Shown piece after piece: positions 38,680 through 64,000 of a stretch of 64,000 bases of DNA. The first letter of the stretch is position 1; every line of letters starts with the position of its first letter. The stretch covers positions 471-64,470 of the forward strand of contig CAZKCI010000117.1 of assembly GCA_964551475.1 (NCBI GenBank). The letters run 5' to 3'. Source of the DNA: an uncultured bacterium. Its GTDB lineage: Bacteria; Auribacterota; Erginobacteria; Erginobacterales; CAZKCI01. The position numbers and the translations under genes were made by a program. The notes under the pieces are model-generated. The model did no database searches. It had not been told where the DNA came from and worked only from the letters and a program-made list of their open reading frames with translations.

Positions 38680-38694
38680 AACTCGAGGAAAAAT

Positions 38695-42070: not shown

Positions 42071-42098
42071 TATACCGAAATGCTAAGGGAGGATTCCG

Positions 42099-42317: not shown

Positions 42318-42874
42318 TCGTGGCGGATTCCAACGTCCTGTCCGCCCGCAATCTGAGCAGCGTCTCCACGCGCCTGGCCGAAGAAGTCGAGAAGAGAGAC
42401 CCGGTCTGGATCGTCCCTCCCCTGTGGCGTTACGAGTTTCAGAACATTCTGGCGACAGCGATCCGGAACGGGCAGCTCGCGCCGGAGGATGCATCCGAAG
42501 CGTGGAGAAAAGCATCGGCCCAGCTCAAGGCGAACGAGCATGAGCCCGATCCGGAAGCGGTCATCGACCTGGCGGGACGCCATCGGATCAGCGGCTATGA
42601 CGCGAATTTCATCGCCCTCGCCAGGGAAATGGGCGTCCGGTGCGTCACGGAAGACGGCGAACTCATCCGCAAATTCCCCGGTCTCGCCGTGAGCATGGCG
42701 GGTTTCGTGAAAGCGGGGCGGACGGGGGAGGGAGTTCGCGAGGCCAGAGCGCGGCATATCGCCGCCGCCGCTCGGCTATTCTGTCCCGAAGGACGGATCG
42801 TCCAACCTCTACGCGCCGAACGGCAAGTACAAGGGATATGCGAGGTAAAATATGATCGGCGCCATCGCGGGTGA
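42314..42874 (+). CDS. vapC: PIN-domain toxin (VapC-like) with a C-terminal extension of about 50 aa
   Basis: Acidic PIN residues in IVADSNVL, WRYEF, SGYDANFIALA and TEDGEL. Confidence 0.8.
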   Translation: MIVADSNVLSARNLSSVSTRLAEEVEKRDPVWIVPPLWRYEFQNILATAIRNGQLAPEDASEAWRKASAQLKANEHEPDPEAVIDLAGRHRISGYDANFIALAREMGVRCVTEDGELIRKFPGLAVSMAGFVKAGRTGEGVREARARHIAAAARLFCPEGRIVQPLRAERQVQGICEVKYDRRHRG

Positions 42875-47034: not shown

Positions 47035-47065
47035 TGACTAGTTGACCAGTGACCAGGAGGATAGC

Positions 47066-49003
47066 ATGAGAAAGATGGCGATGTGTTTCGGGATACTGGC
47101 CGCCGGCCTGATTCCGATTGTCGGGGTAAGCGCGCCGGTCAACTTCCGTGTCATCCACGAGTTCGACGGCTCGAACGGCGCGGCGCCCTATGGTCACCTG
47201 ATCTCCGTTTATGGCCTGCTCTACGGGATGACCGCAGGGGATACGGACGGCAACACGGGGACGGTCTTCTCCATCGCCCCCGATGGCTCCGGCTACACCG
47301 TCCTTCACAAATTTGCCGGGCCGCCCGATGACGGGCAATGGCCCCACGGAAGCCTTTTCTTCCAGAACGATGGTTTCTACGGGATCACCTGGGCGGGAGG
47401 CTGCTCCGATAATAATTGCGGCAACCTGGACGGCACGGGCTGCGGCACGCTTTTCTCGATGCAGAGCGACGGTTCCGGCTACCAGGTCTTCTGGACATTC
47501 GCCTGCGGGGGAGGAGACCAGGGTGTCGCCACGCCGGGCGCCCACTTTGTCTCCGACGGCAGCGTGCTCTACAGCACCGCGGAAATGGGCGGGCCCTACA
47601 GCTTCTGGGGCGGCGGCGCGGTCTTCTCCATCCGACCGGACGGAACCGAGTTTCAACTCCTCCACATCTTCAGCGACACCGACGGGGAGCACCCCGCGGC
47701 CGGCCTGCTCCTGAACCAGGGCGTTCTGTACGGGACGACCATGGCCGGGGGCGAGAACGCCGACGGGACGGTATTCTCCATCGGGACCGATGGCTCCAAT
47801 TTCACCACCCTTCACCAGTTCGACGGAGACGACGGCACCGGCTGCTTCTCCGCGCCGGTCATGGCCGGCGGGAGGCTCTTCGGCGCGACCGCGCTGGGCG
47901 GCGAGGACGGCAACGGGAACCTCTTTTCGCTCCGTCCCGACGGCTCGGACTTCCGGGTTATCCACGATTTTGCGGAGGAAGACGGCGGACCGATGGAGGG
48001 CGTGATCCTCGCCGGCGATACGCTGTACGGAGTCACGGTCGGGAACGGCCCCGATGCGTTCGGGACGATCTTCTCGATCAAGACGGACGGGAGCGATTAC
48101 ACGGTCCTCCATCGCTTCAGCTATGACGACGGGTCCTGGATTGACGGCCATTTGCTCCTGGTCGGGAACACCTTCTACGGTCTCGCCTCCCACGGCGGTT
48201 CCGGCGAGAATGGCCTCATCTTCGCTTTCGACCGGCCGGACCCCGACTATATCGTCCTGGGATCGGGCGATTACAACGGGGACTCGACGTCCGATGTCGC
48301 GGTTTTCCGTCCTTCTTCGGGACTCTGGTCGATCCGTTCCCTGAGCCGGGCATATTTCGGAACCGCCGGCGACATCCCCGCTCCCGGGGATTTCGACGGT
48401 GACGGGACAGCAGATCCCGCGATTTATCGCCGCGCTGCCGGTCTCTGGGCGGTGCGCGGAATCACGAGGCTTTCGTTCGGGGGGGTGGACGATCTGCCTG
48501 TCCCCGCCGACTACGACCGCGACGGCCGCTGTGACCCCGCGCTCTTCAATCAGTCCTCCGGCCTGTGGCATGTGGCTGGTTTGACCCGCGTGCAGCAGGG
48601 GACGCTGGGCGACCTGCCGGTCCCCGGCGACTGGAACGGGGACGGCTCCGCCGATGCGGCCGTCTTCACTCCCTCCTCCGGTTTGTGGTCCATCCGGAAT
48701 TTCACTGAATCTTATTTTGGACTTCCGGGAGACATCCCGGTTCCCAGGGATTACGACGCGGACGGCAGGACAGACCGGGCGATCTTCCGGCCCTCGACGG
48801 GGATGTGGAGGGCGGCGTTATCGGCGGGAGGCGGGATGACGGCCGGCCTGGGGTCGGAGAGAGATCTGCCGGTCCCGGCTGAGTATTCAGGGACCGGTCC
48901 GGCCGTTCCGGCGATCTTCCGCCCGATCAGCGGCCTCTGGGCGGTGAGGGACCTGACCCGTCTCTATCTCGGTTCGACCGACGATATGCCGATGACACGC
49001 TGA
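47066..49003 (+). CDS. Secreted Gloeo_Verruco (GloVer) repeat protein with a six-repeat C-terminal module
   Basis: AGGAGG RBS and a signal peptide. Repeats of the form G(T/A)(V/L)FS(I/L)..DGS....(L/I)H.F. Module at 48266-49000, ending ...DDMPMTR. Confidence 0.75.
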   Translation: MRKMAMCFGILAAGLIPIVGVSAPVNFRVIHEFDGSNGAAPYGHLISVYGLLYGMTAGDTDGNTGTVFSIAPDGSGYTVLHKFAGPPDDGQWPHGSLFFQNDGFYGITWAGGCSDNNCGNLDGTGCGTLFSMQSDGSGYQVFWTFACGGGDQGVATPGAHFVSDGSVLYSTAEMGGPYSFWGGGAVFSIRPDGTEFQLLHIFSDTDGEHPAAGLLLNQGVLYGTTMAGGENADGTVFSIGTDGSNFTTLHQFDGDDGTGCFSAPVMAGGRLFGATALGGEDGNGNLFSLRPDGSDFRVIHDFAEEDGGPMEGVILAGDTLYGVTVGNGPDAFGTIFSIKTDGSDYTVLHRFSYDDGSWIDGHLLLVGNTFYGLASHGGSGENGLIFAFDRPDPDYIVLGSGDYNGDSTSDVAVFRPSSGLWSIRSLSRAYFGTAGDIPAPGDFDGDGTADPAIYRRAAGLWAVRGITRLSFGGVDDLPVPADYDRDGRCDPALFNQSSGLWHVAGLTRVQQGTLGDLPVPGDWNGDGSADAAVFTPSSGLWSIRNFTESYFGLPGDIPVPRDYDADGRTDRAIFRPSTGMWRAALSAGGGMTAGLGSERDLPVPAEYSGTGPAVPAIFRPISGLWAVRDLTRLYLGSTDDMPMTR

Positions 49004-51091: not shown

Positions 51092-52192
51092 CTACGAGCG
51101 GAGGGTGATGCGGAGGATCTCGGCCGGTCGCCAGAGGCGCATACGCGGGCCCCAGGTCCCCGTGCCGCGGCTCACGATGACCGTCAGCCCATCATCTTCA
51201 TATGCCCCCTCGAAAAATGCGTAGTGCGGACGGACGAAATAGCTGAAAGGCCAAATCTGCCCCGCGTGTGTGTGGCCGCATAGCATCAAACCCACACCCT
51301 TTCCTTCTAAATCCTCGGGCCGAGGAGGGGAGTGAGAGAGCATGATTGTCGCGCCAGTTGGACGGCCCGCGAGAGCTTTCCCGAAAGGATCGCCGGTTCT
51401 CCGGACCGATCGCATCCCCCCGCCGATGTTGTCCACACCCGCCAGGACCAGGCCTGGCCGCACCTCGGCCCACGTGTCGTGAAGGACACGGAAGCCTCCC
51501 GCGGTGATAAGTTCCTTGCCGGCACCATCGTGGCCGTAGGATTCGTGATTGCCGAGGACCGCCCAGAGTCCCAGGGGAGCGGACAGGCGGCGGAGGATGG
51601 GGGGCAGGGCTTCAGGGACCTGGCCGTGGCCTTCGAAGGCATCCCCGAGCAGGACCACCAGGTCGGGATTGAGTTTCCGGACCTGATCGACACGGGCCGA
51701 GAGCCATTCCTCTCCGAGGAGTGTGCCGAGATGGAGGTCCGAAAGGGCAACGATCGTCGTTCCGTTGAGCTCCCCAGGTAAGCCTGCGAGGCGCACCTCG
51801 TAGTCGATCACCACAGGGGGACGGAGACCCTGCACCAGTGCGACCGCCGAGAGAGCGCTGCCCGCGATCAAAGCCCAGCCCCTCAGGACTGGGGCAGTGC
51901 GCCGGAATAGGAAACCGAAGCCGGTGGCCACGTCGACCGCGAACAGGCAGGCGAAAAGCAGGAAGAGCGCGGCCATCCAAGTCATGCCGACCAACTCGAC
52001 AGCCGCGGCCACCGTTCCCGCTCCGTTGTGGCCGAAGTGAAGGCCGAGGACGAAGACCCCCCAGAGGGCCGCGCCCGCCAGGGGGAGGAAGCCGCGATGC
52101 AGTCGGCGCTTCAGGGCCGGTATCGAACCGGCTCGCCAGAAGACATAGAGCTGCAGGACGGAAAAGAGAACAGTGAGGATGGGTCCAAACAC
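51092..52192 (-). CDS. Membrane-anchored metallophosphoesterase (YkuE-like)
   Basis: GTG start with an AAGGAGG RBS. About 4 N-terminal TM. Motifs IVALSDLHLG, VVLLGDAFEG, LGNHE, CGHTHAGQ. Confidence 0.85.
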   Translation of the reverse strand: MFGPILTVLFSVLQLYVFWRAGSIPALKRRLHRGFLPLAGAALWGVFVLGLHFGHNGAGTVAAAVELVGMTWMAALFLLFACLFAVDVATGFGFLFRRTAPVLRGWALIAGSALSAVALVQGLRPPVVIDYEVRLAGLPGELNGTTIVALSDLHLGTLLGEEWLSARVDQVRKLNPDLVVLLGDAFEGHGQVPEALPPILRRLSAPLGLWAVLGNHESYGHDGAGKELITAGGFRVLHDTWAEVRPGLVLAGVDNIGGGMRSVRRTGDPFGKALAGRPTGATIMLSHSPPRPEDLEGKGVGLMLCGHTHAGQIWPFSYFVRPHYAFFEGAYEDDGLTVIVSRGTGTWGPRMRLWRPAEILRITLRS

Positions 52193-52280
52193 GCTTCCTC
52201 CTTGTTATTGCGTGAAGCATCCCACGAAAACGCCTGGAAGGCAACCGGCGGGGAGGGACGGGGAGCCGGCCGCGCCGGCT

Positions 52281-52470
52281 TGGTCAAGGCGCTGGCCGGA
52301 TATTCCTCAAAGTATTATTCGGCCAGATATAAATTTACAAAGATTATTGACTTCATAACCATCCCCGTGATAGCGTCCCTTTCAACCATGGGAGGTTATC
52401 GTGCTTTTCTCGGGTGAGGTTAGGTGGCTTTCCAACCCGGCGCTGGAGAGTAGTCCAGGCCGGGTATTCC
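52281..52470 (+). repeat. Cassette-leader module, copy 1 (hairpin + promoter-like + structured leader + hairpin)
   Basis: tggtcaaggcg; ctggccg-N21-cggccag (52292-52326); TTGACT (52347-52352)-N18-TAGCGT; cccgg..ctgga-N6-tccag.ccggg (52436-52464). It lies 57 nt upstream of the RelA/SpoT-like gene. Confidence 0.85.
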
Positions 52471-52526
52471 ATTATCGAACTCCGGAAGGAAATGGGAAAC
52501 AGATGTAGCTGAACAAGGAAACAATC

Positions 52527-53222
52527 GTGCAAAAAGGCGAATTCGAAAGCCTGACTACGAGGTTGAACAAGCTATGGGCGGCGCTATGCGAATGCGCACG
52601 TCGCTATCGGCGCCGCTATTCATTAGCAACCAATCCGAAAGAGGTTCTCCCCCGCAGTCAAACCCATAACCTTGATGACCTTAGGGAGGCCGCCGAAGAT
52701 GCACTTCCTCTCCTGAAGAAAATCTGCGGGCGAGTCGCTGATGATCTCGGGGGACGCTTTATAGCCAATGTGAAATCCTGCAAGCGGATAGAGGAGCGCT
52801 TAAAGCAGGGGATTCATCTGGGAGATATCGAAGATCCGGTCCGGGCTACAATTATTTTCAAGAGCCTGGATCAGATGGCGGAAGGCCTCAATCTTCTCCT
52901 GGACGCATTGAAAGAAGAGACGCCAGAACATATTCGCGTCGAAGATTATTATGCCGATCCTCTGGATTATGGGTATATCGGACTTCAGGTCGAAACATTG
53001 CTTCCGGCCAGCATAAGGGGAGAACCGAGACTGATAAGGGCCGAGATACAAATTCACACCGATCTCTCACTGGAAGCAAGGGAGACGGTGCATCGCTCCT
53101 ACGAAGGGCTTCGGTCACAAAAAGACACAGCCATCTTCGAGGAAGATGATTACAAAGCTTATCTCCAAAGGAGGCTGGCTTCGATGGAGAGCTTCGTCAA
53201 CGCTTTCCGGAAGATGTTGTAG
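52527..53222 (+). CDS. RelA/SpoT-domain nucleotidyltransferase (small alarmone synthetase / toxSAS-like)
   Basis: VKSCKRIEERLKQ, IEDPVRATIIF, DYGYIGLQVE, AEIQIHT, HRSYEGLR. These are colinear with the RSH synthetase motifs (RxKxxxSixxK; DxxGxR; GYxSxH; EiQiRT; HxxYK). GTG start. Confidence 0.7.
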   Translation: MQKGEFESLTTRLNKLWAALCECARRYRRRYSLATNPKEVLPRSQTHNLDDLREAAEDALPLLKKICGRVADDLGGRFIANVKSCKRIEERLKQGIHLGDIEDPVRATIIFKSLDQMAEGLNLLLDALKEETPEHIRVEDYYADPLDYGYIGLQVETLLPASIRGEPRLIRAEIQIHTDLSLEARETVHRSYEGLRSQKDTAIFEEDDYKAYLQRRLASMESFVNAFRKML

Positions 53223-53562
53223 ATGCCTGAGAATATTCCCGATGGATTATTTTCCAGGCTTGCTCTTCGGAAATCCGTCTCCCATAGAACTGGGCTTCAA
53301 CCGGATTTACCGGCTTCCAATCGGAAAGATCGCGGTTGAAAACCTCGCCCCTAATCCCCCGATTGTTTGGCAGGCTGACAACTCGATAGACGGTTTCACC
53401 TCGGACGTAATATCCCGCGATAGTCGCTTTCATCTTTTGTTCCTCCAATAAAAGTTTGCGAATGTATGCCGCTGCCGAAAGGTTATATGCGTTGCCGGAG
53501 GCAAATTCCCAGAGATCATCTTCCAGGTAAACATTATGCCTTTTCCGATTGGAGATTTTCAT
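53197..53562 (-). CDS. Hypothetical protein with an RHH-like N-terminus; convergent with and overlapping the 3' end of the RelA/SpoT-like gene
   Basis: MKISNRKRHNVYLEDDLWEFASGNAYNLSAAAYIRKLLLEE fits a beta-alpha-alpha pattern. The rest is unassigned. The track ORF extends to 53619. Confidence 0.4.
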   Translation of the reverse strand: MKISNRKRHNVYLEDDLWEFASGNAYNLSAAAYIRKLLLEEQKMKATIAGYYVRGETVYRVVSLPNNRGIRGEVFNRDLSDWKPVNPVEAQFYGRRISEEQAWKIIHREYSQASTTSSGKR

Positions 53563-53756
53563 TGGGTTTAGCCGTGGGAGAGTCCTTTCCCTAGCTTCAG
53601 TATAGCATATACACAACATTTATGTATATCAAGCGAAAAATGCAAAAATCTACCGGCCATCTCTGTCGCTGTATCATCCTATACGATAATGAGTAACGAA
53701 TATCCCCAGTCTGCTCCAGTGCGATGCATAAGCGATTTTTTATGCGCCAGGTTTAA

Positions 53757-54050
53757 AATGCGCCTTTTCAATCGAGAGGAAATCAGGCCGGAAAAGAATC
53801 ATGTTCTGGCAACGCCACCGCCCTGCCGATCACGGTCGGCGAAATCAGCGGCGGGGCGGCCTTGACGCTGCGGATGGCTCAGCAGAACCGCAAGCCATAC
53901 CTGCACATCGACTTGGAGTCGGTTCCGGCAGATAAGGCGATTCGGCTAATCCAGTCATGGTTAGGCCGGATAAAGTCAGGGATTCTAAACATCGCCGGTT
54001 CCCGAGAATCGAAGTCACCTGGGATTGATAAGAAGGCTTACGCCGTCCAA
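53757..54050 (+). pseudogene. C-terminal fragment of a cpYpsA / MoCo-carrier-like SLOG protein
   Basis: ...GNATALPITVGEISGGAALTLRMAQQNRKPYLHIDL...ILNIAGSRESKSPGI matches the C-terminal signature (..GGT..T......KP......LNVAGPRES..PGI). There is a stop at 53754-53756 just upstream and no N-terminal half. The reading frame runs into module copy 2. Confidence 0.5.
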
Positions 54051-54240
54051 GTCAAGGCGCTGGCCAGATATTCCTCAAAGTATTCTTCGGCCAGAATTAA
54101 ATCCCTAAAGATTATTGACTTTTCAACCTTCCCCGTGATAGCGTCCTTTTCAACCATGGGAGGTTCCCGTGTTGTTCTTGAGTGAGGTCAGGTGGTGTTC
54201 TAAACCCGGTGCTGGAGGTTAGTCCAGGCCGGGTATTTTT
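54051..54240 (+). repeat. Cassette-leader module, copy 2
   Basis: Same order of elements as copy 1. TTGACT at 54115-54120. Terminal hairpin followed by TATTTTT. It lies 79 nt upstream of the PLD gene, with an extra 11-bp hairpin gcggtccggtt-N10-aaccggaccgc in between. Confidence 0.85.
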
Positions 54241-54318
54241 ATTCGATTGTCTCCGCCCCGCCGAAGCGGTCCGGTTTGTCGCGATTAACCGGACCGCTAT
54301 TCGCGCGGGAAGAAACCA

Positions 54319-56061
54319 ATGGTCTTGGCCAATCGTAGGGGGTGCGCATTGACTGCGGAATTTCAAGTCAGCGGCCAGAATGTCTCGGCGCTGTTCACGT
54401 TAACGATTCACCGCGGTGAGGGTATGGCCCTGCTTGCGATGAACTGGAAAAAGGGGGAACCCCCGCAGGACTTTGTCGGTTTCGCCATCGAATATAGTGA
54501 GCCGAATGGCGAAAAATTCTACGTCTTGAAAAACCGCTTGGGCTTCTGCGATGCGAGCGGCAACGTCAATCCAAACGTGCTGTCGACCAGGCTCTCGCCG
54601 ATCCAGAAATTCCGCTGGGTGCATTTCCCCTACCATGCCGAGCTCCCCGGCACATTCGTTTACCGGGTCACCCCGGTATTTATGAATGGAGCTGACGAGT
54701 TGAGCTATGGCGAAGCACAAGAGGCCGCCATTGAGCTCCGCCGCGAGACCTATCCGGGTTTGCTCAACGTCGCCTTCACCCGCGGATTCATCTCGTCGCA
54801 GGCATTCGTTCGGAACTACAAGTACGCCGGGGCCATCTCCACGCTATTGCCGGAGAAAGCGTCCGACGGGTTGACCTTTGTTCCGACCCATCCCAAGACC
54901 GATGAGGCCCTGGCGTGGATGGGCTTCGAAGCGCGGAATGCGATCCTTGATGTGCTCGACAAGGCCATCGCCGACGAGAAGGCTCAGGTCCGCGTGGTGG
55001 CTTATGATCTCAGCGAATGCGATGTTGTGTCGCGTCTGGAGAAGCTCGGGCCACGCCTAAAGATCATCATCGATGACAGCCAAGACCATGGCGAAGCGGA
55101 TTCGGGCGAAAGGCAGGCGGAAACGCGCCTGTCGGCCTCGGCGGGCGCCGCCAACGTCAAGCGGCAGCACGTGTCGAAACTCCAGCACAACAAGACCATC
55201 GTGATCGACGGCCCCGAAAGCCAGACGGTCGTGTGCGGCTCGACCAATTTCAGCTGGCGCGGATTATTCGTGCAATCGAACAATGCGATGATTCTGCATG
55301 GGGCAAGCGCAGTCGCACCATTTCTGGCGGCATTCGAGAACTATTGGTCGCTGAAACCGGCAGGTTTCAAGAACTCTGCATCCGCGGGATGGACCGATCT
55401 CGGCCTGGATGGGATCGACGCGCGCGTAGCGTTTTCTCCCCACGCGCCATCGAACGCGTTGTTGGAAACCATCGCTGACGACATTGGAAACAACACCACA
55501 TCGTGCCTATTCTTTTCTCTGGCATTTCTCGCTCAAACCCCGGGGCCCATTCTGGAAGCAATCAAGAAGGTGTCGGCAGACGACAAGCTTTTTGTCTATG
55601 GCCTCTCCGACCGGAAAGTAGGCGGTCTCGATCTGCAGAAGCCTGACGGCGATGTCTCGTCGGTCTTTCCCGCAGCGCTGGCGAAGAACCTCCCGGAGCC
55701 GTTTTCCCAAGAACCAACCGGAGGCGGGGGCATCCGCATGCATCACAAATTCATCGTTATCGACTTCGACAAGCCGACCGCCCGGGTCTATCTCGGCTCG
55801 TATAACTTTTCCTCGCCCGCGGACACCAAGAACGGAGAAAACCTGCTTCTGATCCGAGACCGCCGGATCGCGGTCTCCTATATTGTCGAGGCGCTGCGCA
55901 TTTTCGACCACTACCATTTCAGGGTGACCCGGCAGGAAGCCAAGAAGGCCAAAAGGAAGCTCATACTTGCCACGCCGCCGCGGAAAGAGGGGGAAGAGCC
56001 TTGGTGGGCCAAGTACTATATGAACGCCCGGAAAATCCGCGATCGCGAACTCTTCGCTTAG
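54319..56061 (+). CDS. Phospholipase D-superfamily (two HKD motifs) protein with a beta-rich N-terminal domain
   Basis: LQHNKTIVID...GSTNFS and MHHKFIVID...GSYNFS (HxKxxxxD...GSxN, twice). Confidence 0.85.
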   Translation: MVLANRRGCALTAEFQVSGQNVSALFTLTIHRGEGMALLAMNWKKGEPPQDFVGFAIEYSEPNGEKFYVLKNRLGFCDASGNVNPNVLSTRLSPIQKFRWVHFPYHAELPGTFVYRVTPVFMNGADELSYGEAQEAAIELRRETYPGLLNVAFTRGFISSQAFVRNYKYAGAISTLLPEKASDGLTFVPTHPKTDEALAWMGFEARNAILDVLDKAIADEKAQVRVVAYDLSECDVVSRLEKLGPRLKIIIDDSQDHGEADSGERQAETRLSASAGAANVKRQHVSKLQHNKTIVIDGPESQTVVCGSTNFSWRGLFVQSNNAMILHGASAVAPFLAAFENYWSLKPAGFKNSASAGWTDLGLDGIDARVAFSPHAPSNALLETIADDIGNNTTSCLFFSLAFLAQTPGPILEAIKKVSADDKLFVYGLSDRKVGGLDLQKPDGDVSSVFPAALAKNLPEPFSQEPTGGGGIRMHHKFIVIDFDKPTARVYLGSYNFSSPADTKNGENLLLIRDRRIAVSYIVEALRIFDHYHFRVTRQEAKKAKRKLILATPPRKEGEEPWWAKYYMNARKIRDRELFA

Positions 56062-56787
56062 GAGCTCAGGTGGCTTCCGCGGGGCGGTCACGCTCGGGGG
56101 ACAGGCGGGCAGGACCGATGGGAGAGGGGGGAAGGAGATCGCGCGGAATCCCCCTGATCTCCAGCAGCGAGCGATCTGATGCTCTGAACGCCAAGCTGTG
56201 CAATGGGAACTCGGTCTAGAACACTGATCCCCGAGTCGGGATCGCTCGCTGAAACCGTCGGGTTCGAGCTTTTAACTCCCGGCCTGGGCGAAGATGTAAG
56301 GAGTGCGCTGAAAGCCGCATTGGCGGGCGGCGCAGTATTTTCAAGTGGGGCCTCGCCCCGTTTCATCTTTCGCCGGGCGCTCACCGCTTCCATCCGCGAC
56401 ATCGAGGCGCACCCGCGGGGCAAGCTGGAGCTCTCTACAACTGTTACGGATACGGCTACGCGCTTGGGATGAACCACAAGAACGAAGAAGGAAGACGCGA
56501 GATGCTTTGGCCTCATGGTTTGGATAAAATCAAGACTGAGATGGATGCGGGGATCGAACCACGATAAGCAGCATGAGGGTAAGAAGCTAGCTTCCGCCAT
56601 AGCTGAGCGGGAATATTTATAGAGTGAGGGGCGGGGGGAGCAGGGTTTCAGGCTGGAACCAGCCTCCCAAGGGGGGAGAAATTTCAACCGCCAACCCAAG
56701 TAACTATCCGCGAATTCCGGGGGCATCATGCACATATTGCTGCATTCAATGATTTGGAGCTAAGCACGGTGTCCGCGGAATTCTAGA

Positions 56788-59493
56788 ATGAAAACGATGA
56801 AAATGATCTGTGCGGGATTGACGGGAATCCTTTTTGTCTTCCTTTTCGCGCCCGTCGCGCCGGCGGAAAATCTTTTGGACGGACGCGATCCCGGGTTTGA
56901 ATCCAGTACCCCTAACGGCAAATATCCGGATTCGGGGTATTGGCAGATGGGTTGGCTTGGGGAAGCGGGGGCGGTTTGCACATCGACGGCCGCTTATACT
57001 GGCGGCGCCGGCCTGTGGGAATACACCGGCACTTCCGGGACCGATTGGTGGTCGGGCCAATATCAGGATATTTCCGCTAACCCCGGAGAAACCTTCACGG
57101 GAAGCGCCTGGGTAGAGTCGCAATATACATGGGTGAGCGGGAGCAAGGCCCTCGTCAGGCTGGCCTTCCTGGATGCCTCGCATAATGTCCTGGCTACGAA
57201 AGACAGCCCGGCCATAACTGCTGCCTCCTGCGACTGGCAACCACTCACCGGACAAACTGATTCCGCCCCGGCCGGCACAGCGTTCATCAGATTTCGTCTG
57301 TACCTGGAAAAGCCCAATGGCTTATCCGGCCAGAGCATCGCCACCTTCGACGATTGCAGTCTTGAACGGGCCGCGCCGCAACCGCAGCTTTCCGTAAACC
57401 CTTCGGTATTGGGGTACGGCAATGATCTTGTGACCCTTTCGTTCGGCATCACGAATTCCGGAGCCGGCACGGTCTCCTGGACCATAACTAAAAATGCCGA
57501 CTGGATAGGCGTTTCTCCCGCGAGCGGAAGCACGACGACGGAAACCGACACCGTAACCGTGACGGTCAACAGAAGCGGATTGAAATTATCCGACTATAGT
57601 AGCGCCCTGGTCGTAACGTCGAACGGCGGGAATAAAGATGTCGACGTCATCATGGAGATCCCCCCGGCGACCGCCGTGCCCGCCGCTCCGGCCATAGTGG
57701 CCGTGAGCGGATACCGGCTTATGGTCAGGCGCAGGCTGCCGGACGGAACACTTGACGTTGCTCGTCCGTATACAATTAAAGGCGCCGCCTGGGATCCGGC
57801 CGGTATCGGCACTACCTCGGGATATTCCAGCCGCCGCGCCGAATTCGGGAACTGGTATCGGCTTGACCTGCAGCTTTTAAAAGAGATGTCTGCCAATACG
57901 GTGTACCTGTTTCTCGATCCCGGTACCGACCCGACCATGATTAATACCGCGCGGGCCGTGCTCGACTACTGCTATCAAAACGGTGTCATGGTTATAATGA
58001 CCGTCGATGAAGACGGTACGGATAATTCAGCGAATATCGCTCAGGTAATGAATGCGTTTAAGAACCACCCGGCGATACTGATGTGGGCGCTCGGGAACGA
58101 GTGGAACCTCTTGCGCCCGGATAAGCAGCTCTATTACGAGCATTACAGCACGCTCGCGGCGGCCGCGGCGGCGATGCAGACAAATGCCCTGCAGGTCCAA
58201 TCGCTGGACGCTAATCATCCGGTCGCTTCCATCCTAGGCGAGATAAATAATCCGACGCCGGCGGAAGTAGATTCTATCGTCAATAATATCTGTACGGCGG
58301 TCGACGTATGGGGGGCCAATATATACCGGGGGCCGGAATTTTACGCACTCTTTACCGAATGGAAAAATATGGCCTCCAAGCCGCTCTTTCTCTCCGAATT
58401 CGGCACAGACGCTTTTCACTCAACGTCATGGTGGCCCGTAGTCGGATACGAGGACCAGGCGGCGCAGGCGAACTATACCAATACGTTGTGGTTCGATATG
58501 GCGCAGGAGCTTTCCGCGGATGATACCGCGAAAGTTTGCCTGGGGGGCACTGTTTTTGAATGGAACGACGAATGGTGGAAAACGGCGACCGGTAGTCCGA
58601 GCGTCCATGATCCCGGCGGTTATGTGACTACGTGGAACCCCAATGCTCATCCCGATGGCTTTGCCAATGAAGAATGGTTCGGCATCGTTAGCGTAGGCCG
58701 CGAAAGACGGCGGGCGTATTACAAGCTCCAATACCAGTATCAACCGGGAATTAGCGTTATTGATTCCGGAGATTTCAACGGCGACGGGACGAGCGACATC
58801 GCGGTCTTCCGGGGGAGTTCGGGGACGTGGTCGGTGCGGAATATCACGCGGGTCTACTTCGGATCTTCCGCCGACTTTCTCGTCCCCGGAGATTATAAGG
58901 GAGATGGCACCACCGACGTCGCCGTCTTCCGGGATAGCAGTGGCCTGTGGTCGGTTAGGGATCTGACTCGGTTCTACCTGGGAAGCAACGGGGATGTTCC
59001 GGTCCCCGGGGACTACGATGGGGATGGCGCCGCCGAGGCGGGATTGTTCCGGCAGTCCGCGGGGCTGTGGTCGATCCGGAACCTGTCCCGGGTGTATTTC
59101 GGATTTACCGGCGACCGGGCAGTCCCGGGGCACTACGATGCCGGCAGCGTCAAGGATATCGCGGTCTTCCGGGATAGCGCGGGGATGTGGTCGGTGCGCG
59201 ATATCACGAGGTTTTATTTCGGTTCCGCGACCGATGACCTGGTCCCGGGGGACTATGGCGGGGCAGGGAAGTGGGAAGGGGGGATCTTCCGCTCGTCTAC
59301 GGGGTTCTGGTCGATCCGGAACGTGACTCGATTCTATCTGGGGACCTCGACCGATCGTCCTCTCCCGGCGGACTACGATGGAGATGGGATAGATGAGGAG
59401 GGAATCTTTCGCGACTCAAATGGGATGTGGTCAGTGCGAGACCTGACCAGGGTATATTTCGGTACAACGGGAGATAGCCCAGTGACGAGATAA
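56788..59493 (+). CDS. Secreted clan GH-A (TIM-barrel) glycoside hydrolase with CBM-like and BACON-like domains and a six-repeat C-terminal module
   Basis: Signal peptide. LSVNPSVLGYGNDLVTLSFGITNSGAGTVSWTI...WIGVSPASGS (BACON-like). MWALGNEWN (acid/base NE) and LFLSEFGTDAF (nucleophile E). Module at 58768-59490, ending ...GDSPVTR. Confidence 0.8.
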   Translation: MKTMKMICAGLTGILFVFLFAPVAPAENLLDGRDPGFESSTPNGKYPDSGYWQMGWLGEAGAVCTSTAAYTGGAGLWEYTGTSGTDWWSGQYQDISANPGETFTGSAWVESQYTWVSGSKALVRLAFLDASHNVLATKDSPAITAASCDWQPLTGQTDSAPAGTAFIRFRLYLEKPNGLSGQSIATFDDCSLERAAPQPQLSVNPSVLGYGNDLVTLSFGITNSGAGTVSWTITKNADWIGVSPASGSTTTETDTVTVTVNRSGLKLSDYSSALVVTSNGGNKDVDVIMEIPPATAVPAAPAIVAVSGYRLMVRRRLPDGTLDVARPYTIKGAAWDPAGIGTTSGYSSRRAEFGNWYRLDLQLLKEMSANTVYLFLDPGTDPTMINTARAVLDYCYQNGVMVIMTVDEDGTDNSANIAQVMNAFKNHPAILMWALGNEWNLLRPDKQLYYEHYSTLAAAAAAMQTNALQVQSLDANHPVASILGEINNPTPAEVDSIVNNICTAVDVWGANIYRGPEFYALFTEWKNMASKPLFLSEFGTDAFHSTSWWPVVGYEDQAAQANYTNTLWFDMAQELSADDTAKVCLGGTVFEWNDEWWKTATGSPSVHDPGGYVTTWNPNAHPDGFANEEWFGIVSVGRERRRAYYKLQYQYQPGISVIDSGDFNGDGTSDIAVFRGSSGTWSVRNITRVYFGSSADFLVPGDYKGDGTTDVAVFRDSSGLWSVRDLTRFYLGSNGDVPVPGDYDGDGAAEAGLFRQSAGLWSIRNLSRVYFGFTGDRAVPGHYDAGSVKDIAVFRDSAGMWSVRDITRFYFGSATDDLVPGDYGGAGKWEGGIFRSSTGFWSIRNVTRFYLGTSTDRPLPADYDGDGIDEEGIFRDSNGMWSVRDLTRVYFGTTGDSPVTR

Positions 59494-59543
59494 GGAGCAA
59501 GCAGAAAACCATAAAGCGGTTAGGTTAGGTAAGGAGGGACGAG

Positions 59544-59777
59544 TTGACCGCCATCGAGCCCCTGCTTGAAGAGGTGACGAGGGAAGACAGCCTTAGGACC
59601 GACGATCCCGGTGTGGAAGCGGCGCGCGAATGGCGGGAACGCGATCTGGCGCGTCTGAATAGGGGCGTCAGACGCCTGGTTGAACCGGGAGTTTTTTCGG
59701 TCGTCCTGACCGCGAAGCTGTGGAACCTGAAAGAAAACCTTCTGCGCCGAATGAACATACACCGGAATTCCCACTGA
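59544..59777 (+). CDS. Small hypothetical protein (77 aa)
   Basis: TTG start 6 nt after AAGGAGG. No motif. Confidence 0.4.
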   Translation: MTAIEPLLEEVTREDSLRTDDPGVEAAREWRERDLARLNRGVRRLVEPGVFSVVLTAKLWNLKENLLRRMNIHRNSH

Positions 59778-59781
59778 GCCT

Positions 59782-59970
59782 TGGTCAAGGCGCTGGCCAG
59801 ATATTCCTCAAAGTATTATTCTGCCAGATTAAATACCATAATGATTATTGACTTTTCGACCTTCCCCGTGATAGTATCCCTTTCAACCATGGGAGGTTCC
59901 CGTGCTTTTCTTGGGTGAGGTCAGGTGGTGCTCTAAACCCGGCTTTGGACGTTAGTCCAGGCCGGGTTTT
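59782..59970 (+). repeat. Cassette-leader module, copy 3 (best promoter and terminator)
   Basis: ctggcca-N21-ctgccag; TTGACT (59848-59853)-N18-TAGTAT; cccggc-tt-tggac-gtta-gtcca-g-gccggg followed by TTTT (59938-59970). Confidence 0.85.
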
Positions 59971-60116
59971 GAATTTTATAGGATCAACACCCCAAACCAC
60001 ATAGGGATGCTTGAAGATATTTATCGGAGACACATTACTGAGGAATCCATCAATATCTCATTGATATTCGATGGAGTTATGCATCTCTTAAAACGATAAG
60101 CGAGTAGCTCACATAT

Positions 60117-60926
60117 ATGAGTCTTCACTCAAGAATATATTCTATTAGATATAGGGTATTCACTTCTATTCAGGGTACTTTAGGATTAATATTAGTAGCT
60201 TGGGGTGCAGCATTAAAAGCAGATCCATTAGCTCTATCAAGGCAATGGGTATTTGCAGGGATATTACTAAGAAGTATGCAGACAAATGCATACCTTGTAA
60301 TTCCCATCGGTACGGTTATTGTAGGTTGCTTACAGCTCTATAAGCGGCATGTGGGCCACCCGAGTGTATGGAATGCGGTACATTCATGGCTTGATGCATT
60401 TAGGGCAAATGTATTTGAAGATTATCCCGCCGAGCAGGACCATCGAGTTACCCTTTTTAAGCATAAAGATTATCATTTATCATGGTATACACTATTTCGA
60501 AAACCATGGCTAGGTTTCCTAATTCCCATAGAACGATCTGGAGAGGTTACGCAGAATCCGAGTGTAATATTTTCCGCCCCTAGGAGTAATCCAAATCGAG
60601 CGGAGGGCATAGCAGGCTATATTTGGAAAACAAAGGAATGCCATTATGTTTGCAATCTACCAGAATTAAATGATGCAAGCTCCGATAAAACATGTAAAAC
60701 ATACTCTAGAAAAAGCAAAACGAATAAGAAATATGTTCTTAAAAGGGCAAAAACCGGGAAACCCTTCGCTAGATCATTTTGGGGCACGCCCGTAGAAGTG
60801 AATGGCAAGTGCTGGGGAGTTATTGTAATTGATAGTCGCCATCCCGAGCTCGCCGGAAAAGATGAAATAAAGGCAATATTTCAACCGATGGCGAGCGTTC
60901 TGGGCAAACTATTAGAATATGTATGA
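60117..60926 (+). CDS. Membrane-anchored (2-3 TM) GAF-like domain protein
   Basis: TM segments GTLGLILVAWGAAL and AYLVIPIGTVIVGCLQL. C-terminal HRVTLF..., GIAGYIWKTKECHYVCNLPE and SFWGTPVEVNGKCWGVIVIDS resemble GAF core strands. AT-rich codon usage unlike the host genes. Confidence 0.55.
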   Translation: MSLHSRIYSIRYRVFTSIQGTLGLILVAWGAALKADPLALSRQWVFAGILLRSMQTNAYLVIPIGTVIVGCLQLYKRHVGHPSVWNAVHSWLDAFRANVFEDYPAEQDHRVTLFKHKDYHLSWYTLFRKPWLGFLIPIERSGEVTQNPSVIFSAPRSNPNRAEGIAGYIWKTKECHYVCNLPELNDASSDKTCKTYSRKSKTNKKYVLKRAKTGKPFARSFWGTPVEVNGKCWGVIVIDSRHPELAGKDEIKAIFQPMASVLGKLLEYV

Positions 60927-60941
60927 ATACGGAGATATCCA

Positions 60942-61382
60942 ATGTCAGCATGGATTGCCATTGATAATCGTTCTGTAGACGTTATCAATAAAAAGATTAG
61001 AGAAGGTGTCACTGTCGAAGCATCAGTATCACCATATGATATTCCTAGTGCCGTAAGAGGGTATATGAGAGTTGAAGACGGCTGGTTTGTTATTGAATAT
61101 AAGTACTTGTCCGATGAACCAGTCATTAAATTGCATGAAGACGCAAAAATTCGAATATATATTGGCATAAATAGTGGCCGATTGATTCAATTGCATCTTA
61201 ACGCGATCATTCTGGAAGAAGATAAAGATCAAATGCAAAGGAAATATGGGATCGAAAGAATTGCGAAGGATGCGATCAAATACTTCAATGAACTAGATCG
61301 CAATATCTTCAACACAATGAGAATGAATGTATCTCAAAATGTTATAGAGCTGAAAAAGGATGAGATATTTGCTGAAATATAA
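60942..61382 (+). CDS. Hypothetical protein (146 aa), likely co-transcribed with the TM-GAF gene
   Basis: GGAGA RBS and a 15-nt gap after the previous stop. No motif. Confidence 0.55.
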   Translation: MSAWIAIDNRSVDVINKKIREGVTVEASVSPYDIPSAVRGYMRVEDGWFVIEYKYLSDEPVIKLHEDAKIRIYIGINSGRLIQLHLNAIILEEDKDQMQRKYGIERIAKDAIKYFNELDRNIFNTMRMNVSQNVIELKKDEIFAEI

Positions 61383-61397
61383 TTATGGAATTGAATA

Positions 61398-61681
61398 AGG
61401 GAACCGAAGCCGGTGGCGACATCGACCGCGAACAGGCAGGCGAAGAGCAGGATGAGCCTGGCCATCCAAGTCATGCCGACCAACTCGACAGCCGCGGCGG
61501 CAGTCCCCGATCCGTTGTGGCCGAAGTGAAGGCCGAGGACAAAGACCCCTCAGAGCGCTACGCCCGCCAGGGGGAGGAAGCCCCAAGGCAGATGGCGCTT
61601 CAGAGCTGGTATCGTCCCAGCGCGCCAAAAGACATAGATCTGCAGGACGGAAAAGAGAACAGTGAGGATGGGTCCAAACAC
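61398..61681 (-). pseudogene. Duplicated, inactivated 5' fragment of the metallophosphoesterase gene (paralog of 51910-52192)
   Basis: The reverse complement reads VFGPILTVLFSVLQIYVFWRAGTIPALKRHLPWGFLPLAGVAL*. The TGG of the intact copy is TGA here, and homology ends after about 94 codons. Confidence 0.8.
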
Positions 61682-61768
61682 ACGGCCTCCTAAATGTTGC
61701 GTGAAGCATCCCATGAAAACGCCCGGAAGGCAACCGGCGGGGAGGGACGGGGAGCCGGCCGCGCCAGC

Positions 61769-61823
61769 TTGGTCAAGACGCTGGCCGGATATTCCTCAAA
61801 GTATTCTTCGGCCAGAATTAAAT
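61769..61823 (+). repeat. Cassette-leader module, copy 4 (left part only: GTCAAG...hairpin...ATTAAAT)
   Basis: ttggtcaagacgctggccggatattcctcaaagtattcttcggccagaattaaat. It diverges from the other copies immediately after ATTAAAT, where the ATG at 61822 begins. Confidence 0.85.
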
Positions 61824-62985
61824 GGAAGCATGGGAAGTAGCAAAACGGGAGAAGGCCAGAGTGGTTACTGACACTGATAGGTTACTAGCGGAACTGAGGC
61901 ATACGTGCAGTTCTATCACCCCTGCTTCCCTTTTGACGTGCGATTGTCCATCGAATACGGCAGGTAGTTTCTATCGCATCGCAAGGCAATACTGCCAAGA
62001 AGGTCAACGTCGACTTGGAAATCCCATAATCGCTATTAACATCATGCGGGAACTTGAGAAGTGCGGTGTGAACCGCACTCTAATCGACACCTTCTGCAAG
62101 AATGAGTTCCAGGATGACATCGTCTATCCGCATATTGTAATAGAACTATTAGCGTATGCCTTTGCGCTTGATATCGGTGTTTTTTGGTCTGAAGGGGAGG
62201 TATCGCGGCGATGTCCAGAACTGGAGTTTGATGAGGACGGCTTGCTCATTGGCCCCAGGGGCAAGATCCGCTTTGGGAGAGACGGTGTGCGATGTGGTAA
62301 ATTCCTCATACCGTACTGTGACGAGATACAGAGATATGGTCTTGGCTTATCAGGTGGCTTCTTGGATCGATTGTCATCTCTTATAGAGCAAAAGACACCC
62401 TCCAAGGTTGGGTTACGTGTCGCAAGCGACATGGTTTATGATCCCTCTAAGTTCTCGCTATATGTCACCAAGGCATATATCCGTGGGCCGAAGGGCCTAT
62501 CCGCCACGTTGCTTAACAGCCCAGATTTTCCGGAGAACATGCGCGGCACAGTCACCGTGCATGAACGGCTATCTCGTGATCCGGTCCTCAATCTCACCTT
62601 CCCGCTTGTTCGTACTGAGATCATGTGGAGTTCGAAAGGCAGAACCAAGACGGTACAAATCGAGGAGTTGATTCCTAGTGACGACTGGCACAACCATGAC
62701 AGGGCAAAAATATCAAATAGGTACTTGCATGCTATATGGATGCCAGAAAAAGGCTTTTTCGATCATGTAGACGGTGCCGTTAGGTCATACGCAAAAGATG
62801 TCTACGATACTCGCCTGTCGAATGATATCAAGAGCGCCAGAGAAGTCCCAGCTGACTACCGAAAACTATTTCTAATAAATGCGGATCTTCCTTTAGACAT
62901 TTGGTGCGACCTATCGATGCGGTATTTCTATCAGAATGAATTGGTGTTGGAGTATCTTGGTGGCCCCAAGAACGACAATCAATAA
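61822..62985 (+). CDS. Hypothetical protein (387 aa) upstream of the reverse transcriptase
   Basis: Long AT-richer ORF. No recognised motif. Start uncertain (no clear RBS). Confidence 0.55.
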   Translation: MEAWEVAKREKARVVTDTDRLLAELRHTCSSITPASLLTCDCPSNTAGSFYRIARQYCQEGQRRLGNPIIAINIMRELEKCGVNRTLIDTFCKNEFQDDIVYPHIVIELLAYAFALDIGVFWSEGEVSRRCPELEFDEDGLLIGPRGKIRFGRDGVRCGKFLIPYCDEIQRYGLGLSGGFLDRLSSLIEQKTPSKVGLRVASDMVYDPSKFSLYVTKAYIRGPKGLSATLLNSPDFPENMRGTVTVHERLSRDPVLNLTFPLVRTEIMWSSKGRTKTVQIEELIPSDDWHNHDRAKISNRYLHAIWMPEKGFFDHVDGAVRSYAKDVYDTRLSNDIKSAREVPADYRKLFLINADLPLDIWCDLSMRYFYQNELVLEYLGGPKNDNQ

Positions 62986-63150
62986 ATCGGTTTCTAGATG
63001 AAGTCTCGGATGGGGTGGCCAAAACGCTAAACCGTCGCGGCGGTTAAGCGTAGAATTAGGAATTCGAAGCCGCAGTCCATCCCCCGATTAGCGCGGTCGT
63101 TAGGACTATGTTCCATTAAAGGGACAATCACGGAATACCTTCGTCTCATA

Positions 63151-63172
63151 GTGTAATGCTATAGCATTACAC
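63151..63172. promoter_or_regulatory. Perfect 22-bp palindrome, 17 nt upstream of the RT start
   Basis: gtgtaatgcta/tagcattacac. It could be an operator or a 5'-UTR/ncRNA stem. Confidence 0.6.
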
Positions 63173-63188
63173 GAGGGTTTAGAAGACT

Positions 63189-64000
63189 ATGGCTCTCATA
63201 AACGACATTCTTCAACGAGGCTACTTTCCAAAAGAATTGCCTCCCCCATTCACAACCGCAAATTATGCACAATCTTTTGTAAGCCTAGCTTCCCCGATGA
63301 CCAAAGAATCCTTATGCCTTCGATATTCATATTCCAAGTATGCGTGTATCCGACGAGGGCTAGCTATTCCGAATCCTGCCCAAATGGTTGCGCTCGCAAA
63401 AGCTGTATCAGACAACTGGGAAGCAATCATTAGGCATTGCAATAAATCGGTGCTTTCGCAGACCGTACCTAGGCTGGACGCTGAGAGATCTATAACCGGA
63501 ACGCATGACTTGAACGAAATCCCTGCTATCCGGGCCAAGATTCGTATCGGAGCGAAATATATTCTAAAAGCCGACGTAGCGAATTTCTATGGGAGCATCT
63601 ATACCCATGCTATCCCATGGGCGTTTCATTCAAAACCAATCGCCAAGAGAGATCGGAGTGTCAGTAAGTCAAGAACCGGTGGTCAGGCTCTTTTTGGGAA
63701 TTTGCTCGATCAAGCGTCCCGAGATATACAATCCGGGCAAACGATTGGAGTCCCTATTGGGCCCGATACGTCGTTCGCAATTGCGGAGTCTGTGCTTTGC
63801 GCAGTGGATTCACACTTTACAAGGAAAATCGGTGCTCCAATCACTGGCTTCCGCTTTATTGACGATTACGAATTTGCCTGTGATAGATTATCGAAGGCCG
63901 AATCTATAAGGGCGATATTGCAAGACGCTTTGATGGAATTTGAACTTCAGCTAAACTCGAGAAAGACCCGCATCATCGAATTGCCGGACGTATTGGATAC
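63189..64000 (+). CDS. Reverse transcriptase, UG/Abi-like (defence-associated type), 3'-truncated by the window end
   Basis: Not in the supplied track because it has no stop in the window. My translation is MALINDILQRGYFPKELPPPF...KADVANFYGSIYTHAIPWA...GQTIGVPIGPDTSFAIAESVL...TGFRFIDDYEFAC...LQLNSRKTRII. That gives RT motifs 1-2 (D..NFY.SI), 4 (G.P.G...S..(A/L)E), 5 (F/Y-x-DD) and 6-7. Confidence 0.8.
   Translation, partial: MALINDILQRGYFPKELPPPFTTANYAQSFVSLASPMTKESLCLRYSYSKYACIRRGLAIPNPAQMVALAKAVSDNWEAIIRHCNKSVLSQTVPRLDAERSITGTHDLNEIPAIRAKIRIGAKYILKADVANFYGSIYTHAIPWAFHSKPIAKRDRSVSKSRTGGQALFGNLLDQASRDIQSGQTIGVPIGPDTSFAIAESVLCAVDSHFTRKIGAPITGFRFIDDYEFACDRLSKAESIRAILQDALMEFELQLNSRKTRIIELPDVLD

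Follow-up and report, generated by a model that had tools for sequence, protein, structure and literature searches.

In this work we have investigated a repeated, promoter-like DNA element in an uncultured bacterium of the Auribacterota (GTDB lineage Erginobacteria; Erginobacterales; CAZKCI01). The whole stretch analysed, called the window below, comprises 64,000 nt (NCBI GenBank assembly GCA_964551475.1, contig CAZKCI010000117.1, positions 471 to 64,470 of the forward strand), and all coordinates are given in its numbering. Next to the gene of a membrane metallophosphoesterase (MPE) lies a mosaic island of unrelated genes, several of them defence genes, and the element, which we call the module, recurs along this island. 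A repeat search of the window found three full copies of 187 nt (52283-52469, 54051-54237 and 59784-59970), a family with 76-89% identity to the reference copy, and a 52-nt family of four copies (88-96% identity) which corresponds to the left part of the module and includes a further site at 61772-61823; all lie on the plus strand. Copies 1-3 are 84-90% identical to each other over 184-192 nt, and the length and identity of these repeats are far beyond chance. An earlier account of this DNA made from its letters alone (the sequence-only reading) had likewise listed three full copies and one left part on the plus strand, with coordinates which agree with ours within 2-3 nt. The MPE gene and the copies of the array, with covariance-model scores, are as follows.

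51092-52192, minus strand: MPE, 366 aa (Pfam Metallophos 9.1e-11), the conserved left flank, divergent from the module
52283-52473, plus strand: module copy 1, the resident, syntenic copy, 154 bits
52283-52334, plus strand: left part of copy 1
52347-52352, plus strand: predicted -35 of copy 1, TTGACT
52371-52376, plus strand: predicted -10 of copy 1, TAGCGT
52390-52395, plus strand: predicted Shine-Dalgarno (SD) sequence of copy 1, GGGAGG
52401-52403, plus strand: candidate start codon of copy 1, GTG
52435-52465, plus strand: predicted terminator hairpin of copy 1, with a weak U-tract
54051-54243, plus strand: module copy 2, 162 bits
54115-54120, plus strand: predicted -35 of copy 2
54139-54144, plus strand: predicted -10 of copy 2, TAGCGT
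54158-54163, plus strand: predicted SD of copy 2
54169-54171, plus strand: candidate start codon GTG of a 17-codon open reading frame (ORF) in copy 2
54220-54222, plus strand: stop codon TAG of this ORF, in the terminator loop
54204-54234, plus strand: predicted terminator of copy 2, followed by a U-tract
59784-59976, plus strand: module copy 3, 160 bits
59848-59853, plus strand: predicted -35 of copy 3
59872-59877, plus strand: predicted -10 hexamer of copy 3, in the extended -10 TGATAGTAT
59891-59896, plus strand: predicted SD of copy 3
59902-59904, plus strand: candidate start codon GTG of a 17-codon ORF in copy 3
59953-59955, plus strand: stop codon TAG of this ORF
59937-59967, plus strand: predicted terminator of copy 3, followed by a U-tract
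61772-61823, plus strand: copy 4, the left part alone, without promoter, leader or terminator

Read directly in the 5' to 3' direction, the module consists of GTCAAGGCGCTGGCC, the palindrome CTGGCCRG-N21-CKGCCAG, AATTAAAT, a promoter-like block of the form GATTATTGACT-N18-hexamer (TAGCGT in copies 1 and 2, TAGTAT in copy 3), TTTCAACCATGGGAGGTT and a compound hairpin, CCCGG..TGGA-N6-TCCAG-G-CCGGG, which would be an intrinsic terminator. All the sub-features named in the sequence-only reading can be found in this way, including the T-run behind the hairpin, which is good in copies 2 and 3 and poor in copy 1. Among the array copies only copy 3 passed a generic promoter scan. The module has a GC content of 0.47-0.49, below that of the host flanks, and the genes adjoining its instances are co-oriented with it in six of six cases, the distance from the module to the downstream start codon being variable (about 57-150 nt). 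The homology of copy 4 ends at ...AATTAAAT, just past the palindrome, and its displaced right half was not found elsewhere, including beyond the reverse transcriptase gene which follows it. It had been described as a 55-nt piece; it does hold the left part alone, but it belongs to a 425-nt repeat (51909-52334 against 61398-61823, 88-90% identical) which contains the 5' end of the minus-strand MPE gene with its N-terminal membrane region, the spacer and the left part of the module.

What did this locus look like before the array arose? The closest homologue of MPE is found in a sister species (83% protein identity, the next-best match having about 61%), whose locus is present in at least five assemblies, including GCA_016294925.1 and the metagenome-assembled genome (MAG) SRP192927_co7_26. 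In these assemblies the MPE spacer carries one module, a stable single copy, and after it come 118 nt, a co-oriented gene for a 759-aa SBBP/FG-GAP protein and a convergent FG-GAP gene. From MPE to the end of the module, the window and the sister species align at 81% identity. Collinearity breaks at 52473, directly past the terminator, and the alignment restarts 12.7 kb on, at the convergent FG-GAP gene (93.7%), at about 65137 in window numbering. In the sister species the slot is therefore taken up by a 2.4-kb SBBP gene, whereas here it is filled by a 12.7-kb mosaic, which carries three extra copies of the module (one of them the left part alone), and the single-copy state of the sister species indicates that cassettes accreted behind the module. 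The second MPE fragment, within the 425-nt repeat, shares 88% identity with the resident gene and 81% with the sister species, which points to an origin in a third lineage. More distant MPE homologues (about 60% identical, two loci) have other neighbours and no module.

Conservation between copy 1 and the sister-species copy is uneven along the module. Identical positions number 42 of 52 in the left part, 15 of 18 in the -35 block, 12 of 24 in the -35/-10 spacer together with the -10, 23 of 27 in the 5' leader up to the start codon, 24 of 31 in the mid-leader and 30 of 33 in the terminator, which also matches that of a diverged paralogue at 26 kb (copy 5, see below) at 24-26 of 33 positions. 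The -35, the -10, the leader 5' end and the terminator are kept across the window genome, the sister species and this paralogue. The spacer between the hexamers has drifted to 50% while the positions of the hexamers are kept, as one would expect if the promoter works, and the promoter, leader and intrinsic terminator anatomy proposed by the sequence-only reading is borne out by this conservation. For structural comparison the set consists of six distinct sequences from two species and one paralogue, too few to assess covariation; across it the terminator is 98.6% paired, with one-sided U/C changes only. All five full versions have the hairpin and a co-oriented gene, with a U-tract that is good in four and weak in copy 1. 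Folding z-scores of the leader range from -2.5 to -4.1, and the terminator is present in every minimum-free-energy structure.

The leader of every version contains GGGAGG and, 5 nt later, a start codon, which is GTG in four versions and, at the same spacing, ATG in copy 5. A 16-nt segment at the leader 5' end, UCAACCAUGGGAGGUU, does not vary among copies 1-3 and the sister species, and a U-rich CUUUUCU follows the start codon. Just 5' of the terminator every version has a pyrimidine tract able to pair with the SD; the four core SD/anti-SD pairs form in six of six sequences, and the U/C changes are confined to the pyrimidine side. In copy 2, copy 3 and the sister species the ORF has 17 codons and a TAG stop inside the terminator loop. 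Through a 1-nt deletion the ORF of copy 1 has 35 codons, crosses the terminator and ends 18 nt before the next gene, and that of copy 5 crosses the terminator in frame with the main gene. Two further pairings had been suggested for the leader. The 7-bp stem CAUGGGA/UCCCGUG is perfect in copies 2 and 3, but it has a G-A mismatch in copy 1 and is broken in copy 5, and the GGGU/ACCC pairing, thought of as an antiterminator, is lost in copy 2 (GAGT) and copy 5.

The upstream hairpin was dropped as a conserved structure. Its outer stem CTGGCCRG/CKGCCAG is present in all four array copies, among which it shrinks from 7 to 5 bp without compensation, but it is absent in the sister species (CTGGTCAG...CCTCCGG), where the AT-rich loop sequence GATATTCYTCAAAGTATTMTTC is kept. 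This AT-rich region, 60-90 nt before the transcription start, may be more like a protein-binding site than a hairpin. We also rejected the idea that the module represents the 3' end of a protein-coding gene. Each of the three copies has a frame that stays open throughout, yet most substitutions are non-synonymous, and copy 1 is located in a spacer, opposite MPE.

When copies 1-3 were combined with the sister-species copy in a covariance model, it matched one more site, at 26082-26177, with 43 bits (E about 1e-9). Its features are:

26044-26184, plus strand: module copy 5, a diverged paralogue, with promoter, leader and terminator and without the left part
26052-26057, plus strand: predicted -35 of copy 5, TTGACT
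26075-26080, plus strand: predicted -10 hexamer of copy 5, in the extended -10 TGATAACTT, after a 17-nt spacer
26093-26098, plus strand: predicted SD of copy 5, GGGAGG
26104-26106, plus strand: candidate start codon of copy 5, ATG
26140-26167, plus strand: predicted terminator of copy 5, followed by T7

Copy 5 carries its own ATTATTGACT, the same CTTTTCTCGG as the other copies and a near-identical terminator. The region upstream of it does not align with the left part of the module, so the deeply conserved unit is the promoter, leader and terminator, about 140 nt. It sits upstream of the gene of a 1091-aa FG-GAP repeat protein (probable start ATG 26267), the SD of which lies inside a 12-bp hairpin, CCTCCGTCCCGG-A-CCGGGACGGGGAGG (26200-26270). 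Since the leader ORF from ATG 26104 runs in frame through the terminator and this hairpin into the FG-GAP gene, the arrangement suggests translational coupling or an N-terminally extended product.

Other searches for the module were negative. A second covariance model which included copy 5, run unfiltered on the full window and on related loci totalling about 190 kb, found no further copies; about 94 kb of the window genome holds no dispersed copies outside the slot except copy 5, and ten further kb of the source contig, with a type II secretion operon, hold none. Among 185,579 species genomes the left-part 23-mer pattern had no match, and the leader and terminator pattern matched only the sister-species MAG and two chance coding sites. 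A metagenome scan with a left-part 21-mer gave four chance coding matches and no module, in a collection without the source contig. Viral contigs gave one chance coding match, plasmids and phages none by blastn, and a protein database searched with the open frame of the module (VKALARYSSKY...) for ORFs called over other copies yielded no candidates. An Rfam 15 scan of the window at gathering thresholds returned tRNA-Met only; a permissive scan (E<=10) gave in the module region only rnk_pseudo, a terminator-driven match of 23 bits against a gathering score of 55. Integrase, transposase and recombinase Pfam domains were absent from the ORFs and called genes at 29-64 kb of the window and in about 7.6 kb past its end (there are no gene calls at 53.6-53.9 and 56.06-56.8 kb), attC-like cores (GTTRRRY) were absent from the module, and inspection of the edges of the copies found neither terminal inverted repeats nor target-site duplications at any of them.

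The island behind copy 1 consists of four cassettes and of remnants of genes between them:

52527-53619: cassette A, GC 0.49
52527-53222, plus strand: 231-aa protein of cassette A
53197-53619, minus strand: convergent 140-aa ORF of cassette A
53751-54050, plus strand: 5'-truncated cpYpsA (SLOG) remnant (Pfam cpYpsA 2.7e-11, profile positions 82-140 of 145)
54319-59493, plus strand: cassette B, GC 0.58
54319-56061, plus strand: two-HKD PLD-family protein of cassette B, DrmC-like (Pfam PLDc_2 4.7e-20; PADLOC DrmC 1.2e-12)
56788-59493, plus strand: secreted GH2/BACON/FG-GAP protein of cassette B (Pfam BACON_2, Glyco_hydro_2_C, FG-GAP), not a defence gene
59544-59777, plus strand: 77-aa C-terminal remnant of a nicotinate phosphoribosyltransferase (NAPRTase; Pfam NAPRTase_C 2.9e-8, profile positions 51-111 of 111)
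60117-60926, plus strand: transmembrane (TM)-GAF protein of cassette C (Pfam GAF 6.5e-6; GC of the cassette 0.39)
60942-61382, plus strand: 146-aa protein of cassette C
61398-61823: second, diverged MPE 5' end (61398-61697, minus sense), spacer and copy 4, 88-90% identical to the resident stretch
61822-64000, plus strand: cassette D, with a 387-aa (or 313-aa) ORF and a reverse transcriptase from 63189 which runs past the window end, GC 0.47

The island extends to about 65136 in window numbering, and the GC content of its cargo is 0.39-0.58, compared with 0.62-0.67 in the flanking genes. Inspection of the reading frame shows the cpYpsA homology to end where module copy 2 begins, and the stop codon of the NAPRTase remnant lies about 4 nt before copy 3; as to which remnant travelled with which cargo, its left or its right neighbour, GC gives an ambiguous answer. 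A protein-homology search for the donor of the NAPRTase remnant returned the remnant itself only, and exact-protein look-ups of the cassette proteins matched the same locus or short fragments of it. Cassette B has 725 nt without assignment between the PLD and GH2 genes, and cassette D a 200-nt non-coding gap (62986-63188) between its ORF and the reverse transcriptase. The latter is of the DRT6/DRT4 type (PADLOC Drt6 1.3e-96 and Drt4 3.5e-90; NCBIfam Drt4 3e-63), and for this gene, as for the PLD/HKD and GAF genes with the matches listed above, the identities proposed from sequence were confirmed. The proposed toxSAS-like gene, the 231-aa protein of cassette A, is less certain: its best PDB match is RelQ/YwaC, a weak one at E=0.019, and it has no Pfam or PADLOC match. 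Between module copy 2 and the PLD gene there is also an 11-bp hairpin, GCGGTCCGGTT...AACCGGACCGC (54262-54300), with a minus-strand Rfam match to Termite-flg (23 bits against a gathering score of 40) that is probably due to chance.

The GH2 protein is one of at least five large secreted proteins of the window which share 120-nt (40-aa) FG-GAP-type repeats, 60-80% similar at the DNA level (28681-29381, 34507-35235, 46293-47037, 48274-48990 and 58776-59495). Together with the identity to the sister species of 93.7% in the right flank against 81% in the left, these shared repeats hint at recombination among FG-GAP genes.

Repeats such as the module can give mis-joins, and the short contigs from public sequencing runs do break at modules, so that one might ask if the array is a chimera of metagenome assembly across the repeated element. 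We consider this extremely improbable. The same order is found in a 121-kb JGI contig and in a 65.5-kb NCBI contig, the latter holding both the MPE gene and the island's NAPRTase remnant. Two contigs of public runs, each assembled separately, cross the junctions at 100% identity, one (52247-54080) the spacer, copy 1, cassette A, the cpYpsA remnant and copy 2, the other (59788-61489) copy 3, cassette C and the second MPE fragment. Moreover, the 10-24% difference between the copies suffices for assemblers to separate them.

The module is a native chromosomal element and not the end of a mobile element. We think it somewhat more probable than not that it is a lineage-specific sigma70 promoter with a leader/attenuator of about 95 nt, which has been reused for cargo genes and has likely acted as an anchor for recombination. 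By default, transcription would stop at the hairpin and U-tract and give a short RNA of about 95 nt. A ribosome on the leader which trails the polymerase could cover the 5' arm of the terminator and so permit read-through into the co-oriented gene, most likely as coupling-dependent attenuation of the pyrBI type, while SD/anti-SD pairing would favour termination. The native role of the module would be to drive secreted SBBP/FG-GAP repeat proteins. Behind the resident copy three further segments would then have been stacked head to tail, each in the form of a remnant of a former upstream gene, the module or its left part, and cargo, of which several items are defence genes. As the copies differ by 10-24%, they would have been imported from other lineages or loci and not duplicated in place. 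We hypothesize that each accretion began with homologous recombination by the host, anchored on the module or, for the last unit, on MPE, the spacer and the left part, and was completed by an illegitimate joint at the other end, after which the module could provide transcription and conditional read-through for the new cargo. The truncated gene remnants which separate the units point to such a mixture of homologous and illegitimate recombination and not to clean excision and integration of cassettes.

This account retains part of what had been proposed before. The idea of a regulatory leader stands in outline, although the leader would be a leader-ORF attenuator native to FG-GAP genes and not a riboswitch or a defence-specific device. 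That the whole defence island follows one signal is not supported by the partners of the module, since these are SBBP/FG-GAP genes in the sister species and at copy 5 and cassette B includes a GH2/BACON/FG-GAP gene; the module is thus not specific for defence.

Several observations weigh against the attenuator and accretion account. Promoter, terminator and translation of the leader are predictions from sequence. In the six distinct sequences not a single compensatory change was seen in any proposed helix. The SD/anti-SD pairing is weak evidence, needing no more than a pyrimidine tract, and while possible in all versions it can coexist with the terminator. The leader ORF varies between versions in extent and frame, no codon bias is evident in it, and its substitutions are mostly non-synonymous, which indicates that the peptide is unconstrained. 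The left edges of copies 2 and 3 agree within about 4 nt at GTCAAGG, which random homologous or illegitimate recombination does not predict and which would fit a discrete unit or a defined site better. Lastly, the array has been seen in one genome, and the mechanism of accretion rests on this single instance.

Could the transcript of about 95 nt be a stand-alone, trans-acting small RNA gene, with an island beside it as islands lie beside tRNA or tmRNA genes, the copies as by-products of integration and the downstream genes not regulated by it? Such a gene would be a discrete promoter-to-terminator unit, as is the module with its good terminator in four of five versions, and it could have an invariant 5' segment like UCAACCAUGGGAGGUU and a variable distance to the start codons downstream. 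We nevertheless hold it to be unlikely, because the neighbours are co-oriented in all six cases, copy 5 is in frame with its main gene and followed by a hairpin that sequesters the SD of this gene, and the conserved segment is a canonical SD with a start codon and has no obvious seed region. Unlike att-site duplications, what is repeated here takes in the promoter together with about 60 nt before it, and no integrase was found in the genes examined around the island. A riboswitch which senses a metabolite or nucleotide through terminator/antiterminator alternatives, as suggested in the sequence-only reading, would account for a structured leader that lies next to the promoter and has an intrinsic terminator, and for the folding z-scores down to -4. 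It is much less probable still: the leader 5' of the terminator is only about 55 nt long, copy 5 does not keep its middle, GGGTGAGGTCAGGTGG, the 7-bp stem fails in copy 5 and the GGGT/ACCC pairing in copies 2 and 5 without covariation, and at E<=10 Rfam has nothing to offer beyond the terminator-driven match.

The matching left edges of copies 2 and 3 are better accommodated if an unlinked site-specific recombinase, Xer-like or integron-like, acts on the module or on its left-part palindrome and so captures and exchanges the cassettes as units. Copy 4 ends cleanly just after the palindrome, the outer stem occurs in all four copies of the genome with the array and is absent in the array-less sister species, and no cassette brings an integrase of its own, as in elements which use the Xer system of the host. 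Yet no recombinase gene was found in about 45 kb examined around the island, the module has neither attC R''/L'' sites nor a dif-like arm-spacer-arm architecture, and the stem degrades from 7 to 5 bp without compensation. The units are set apart by truncated gene remnants, the repeat comprises the whole 190 nt and not a short core, and the right part lost from copy 4 was not found displaced. We regard this explanation as improbable. The earlier recombination-site proposal is supported only in the weak sense that cassettes have accreted behind the module, with copies of it, while site-specific machinery was not found. The integron-like logic is not supported, as neither a recombinase nor attC cores were found in the DNA examined, the stem is absent from the sister species and remnants lie between the units. 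A miniature non-autonomous transposable element with an outward promoter, similar to Correia or ERIC elements, would explain why the same unit of about 190 nt stands upstream of unrelated genes, with discrete edges in two copies and a GC content below that of the host flanks. The probability of this is very small, as it has neither terminal inverted repeats nor target-site duplications, no plasmid or phage match, the sister species as sole match among the 185,579 species genomes, in about 94 kb of this genome no copy outside the slot but the old paralogue, and a locus that is single-copy and stable in at least five sister-species assemblies. On the same evidence the module does not show the marks of an insertion-sequence end or a miniature inverted-repeat element. 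There is also an outside chance of a combined role, in which the module would be a portable, translation-coupled attenuator that senses the translational state of the cell (e.g. takeover by a phage) and doubles as the homology, or as the site of an unlinked host recombinase, by which cassettes equipped with promoters are swapped between lineages and stacked in one slot. If true, this would make it an integrase-free functional analogue of the integron, in which each cassette brings its own regulatory leader.

Returning to the attenuator account, we compared the module with known systems. In attenuation of the E. coli pyrBI type, a ribosome trailing the polymerase blocks the leader terminator. 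The module resembles such attenuators, as read from sequence alone, in the order of promoter, SD and start codon, a short ORF which reaches or crosses the terminator, and the gene, as well as in its U-rich CUUUUCU. It differs in having no evident regulatory codons and no conserved peptide, a variable end of the ORF and an SD/anti-SD option, and in that the genes behind it are unrelated to nucleotide or amino-acid biosynthesis. With integrons the island shares a one-directional run of unrelated, co-oriented cassettes and a recurring element beside a fixed platform. It has no IntI and no attI/attC, however, and each full module has its own -35/-10 instead of a single Pc. What recurs is an element with a length of about 190 nt and a sequence conservation of 76-90%, and gene remnants lie between the units.

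Variable defence hotspots are known between core genes, and tandem islands at tRNA and tmRNA genes. The slot studied here is similarly fixed, with MPE and the module on the left and the FG-GAP gene on the right, and holds different cargo in related genomes, of atypical GC and with defence genes (PLD nuclease, DRT-type reverse transcriptase). In contrast to the tRNA/tmRNA islands, there is no integrase, the repeat is a whole promoter-leader unit with about 60 nt upstream and not a partial tRNA 3' end, the one copy that is partial (copy 4) consists of the non-transcribed left part, and one unit duplicates part of a flanking core gene from another lineage. A further comparison is with putative mobile promoters, for which the definition asks that the upstream regions of non-homologous genes of a genome share 80% identity or more over 50 nt or more (PMC3575422). 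Some of these carry RNA regulatory elements, and the mechanism of their mobilisation is unknown (PMC3575422, summarising Matus-Garcia, Nijveen & van Passel 2012). Copies 1-3 fall within this definition, being 84-90% identical over about 187 nt and lying 57-147 nt before unrelated start codons. Unlike putative mobile promoters, they are stacked in one variable slot and not scattered, they follow remnants of former upstream genes, and they are diverged enough to have come from different source lineages, with the single-copy ancestral state visible in the sister species.

If the reuse of a native promoter and leader is the right explanation, the locus would be an unusually legible case of the reuse of regulatory DNA, in which the ancestral state, a paralogue and imported copies can be compared directly, and an uncultured lineage would contribute a leader/attenuator family that has not been curated. 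The locus suggests that one promoter-leader unit can be both an expression signal and a recombination handle for new genes, including defence genes. The larger claim of a defence island wired to one dedicated signal is currently unsupported.

The window contains other repeats and a second low-GC mosaic region. The latter (29600-43000) includes a 258-nt direct repeat (98% identical, at 30529 and 32464) which flanks a DUF4062 gene, and three ORF6N-domain gene fragments (29659, 35720 and 37029); genes of the NUDIX, PD-(D/E)XK/RNase H-like and LigD_N types lie near it. A 62-nt element with a 15-bp hairpin (GGTCCCGATAATCAC...GTGATTATCGGGATC) stands directly 3' of three genes, at 35258, 37420 and 41546. 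GC-rich palindromic units of the repetitive extragenic palindromic type (GTGGGAGCGRCGTCTCGCC...) at 25540-25700 adjoin the tRNA-Met gene (25390-25463, minus strand), and a 76-nt unit is present in three tandem copies at 21645-21872. Lastly, eight intergenic arrays are formed by 4-5 GTCCAT hexamers with an exact period of 9 nt (GTCCATNNN), at 4624-4692, 10931-10990, 14456-14506, 15373-15432, 17090-17158, 18066-18125, 19611-19679 and 22003-22062. They have one orientation, no ATGGAC-period arrays being found on the opposite strand of the window, and they look like a recurrent regulatory or protein-binding array. Two of them lie within a 134-nt repeat (93% identical, at 15338 and 17055), and several end in ...GTCCATGGAGTCC just 5' of plus-strand genes.

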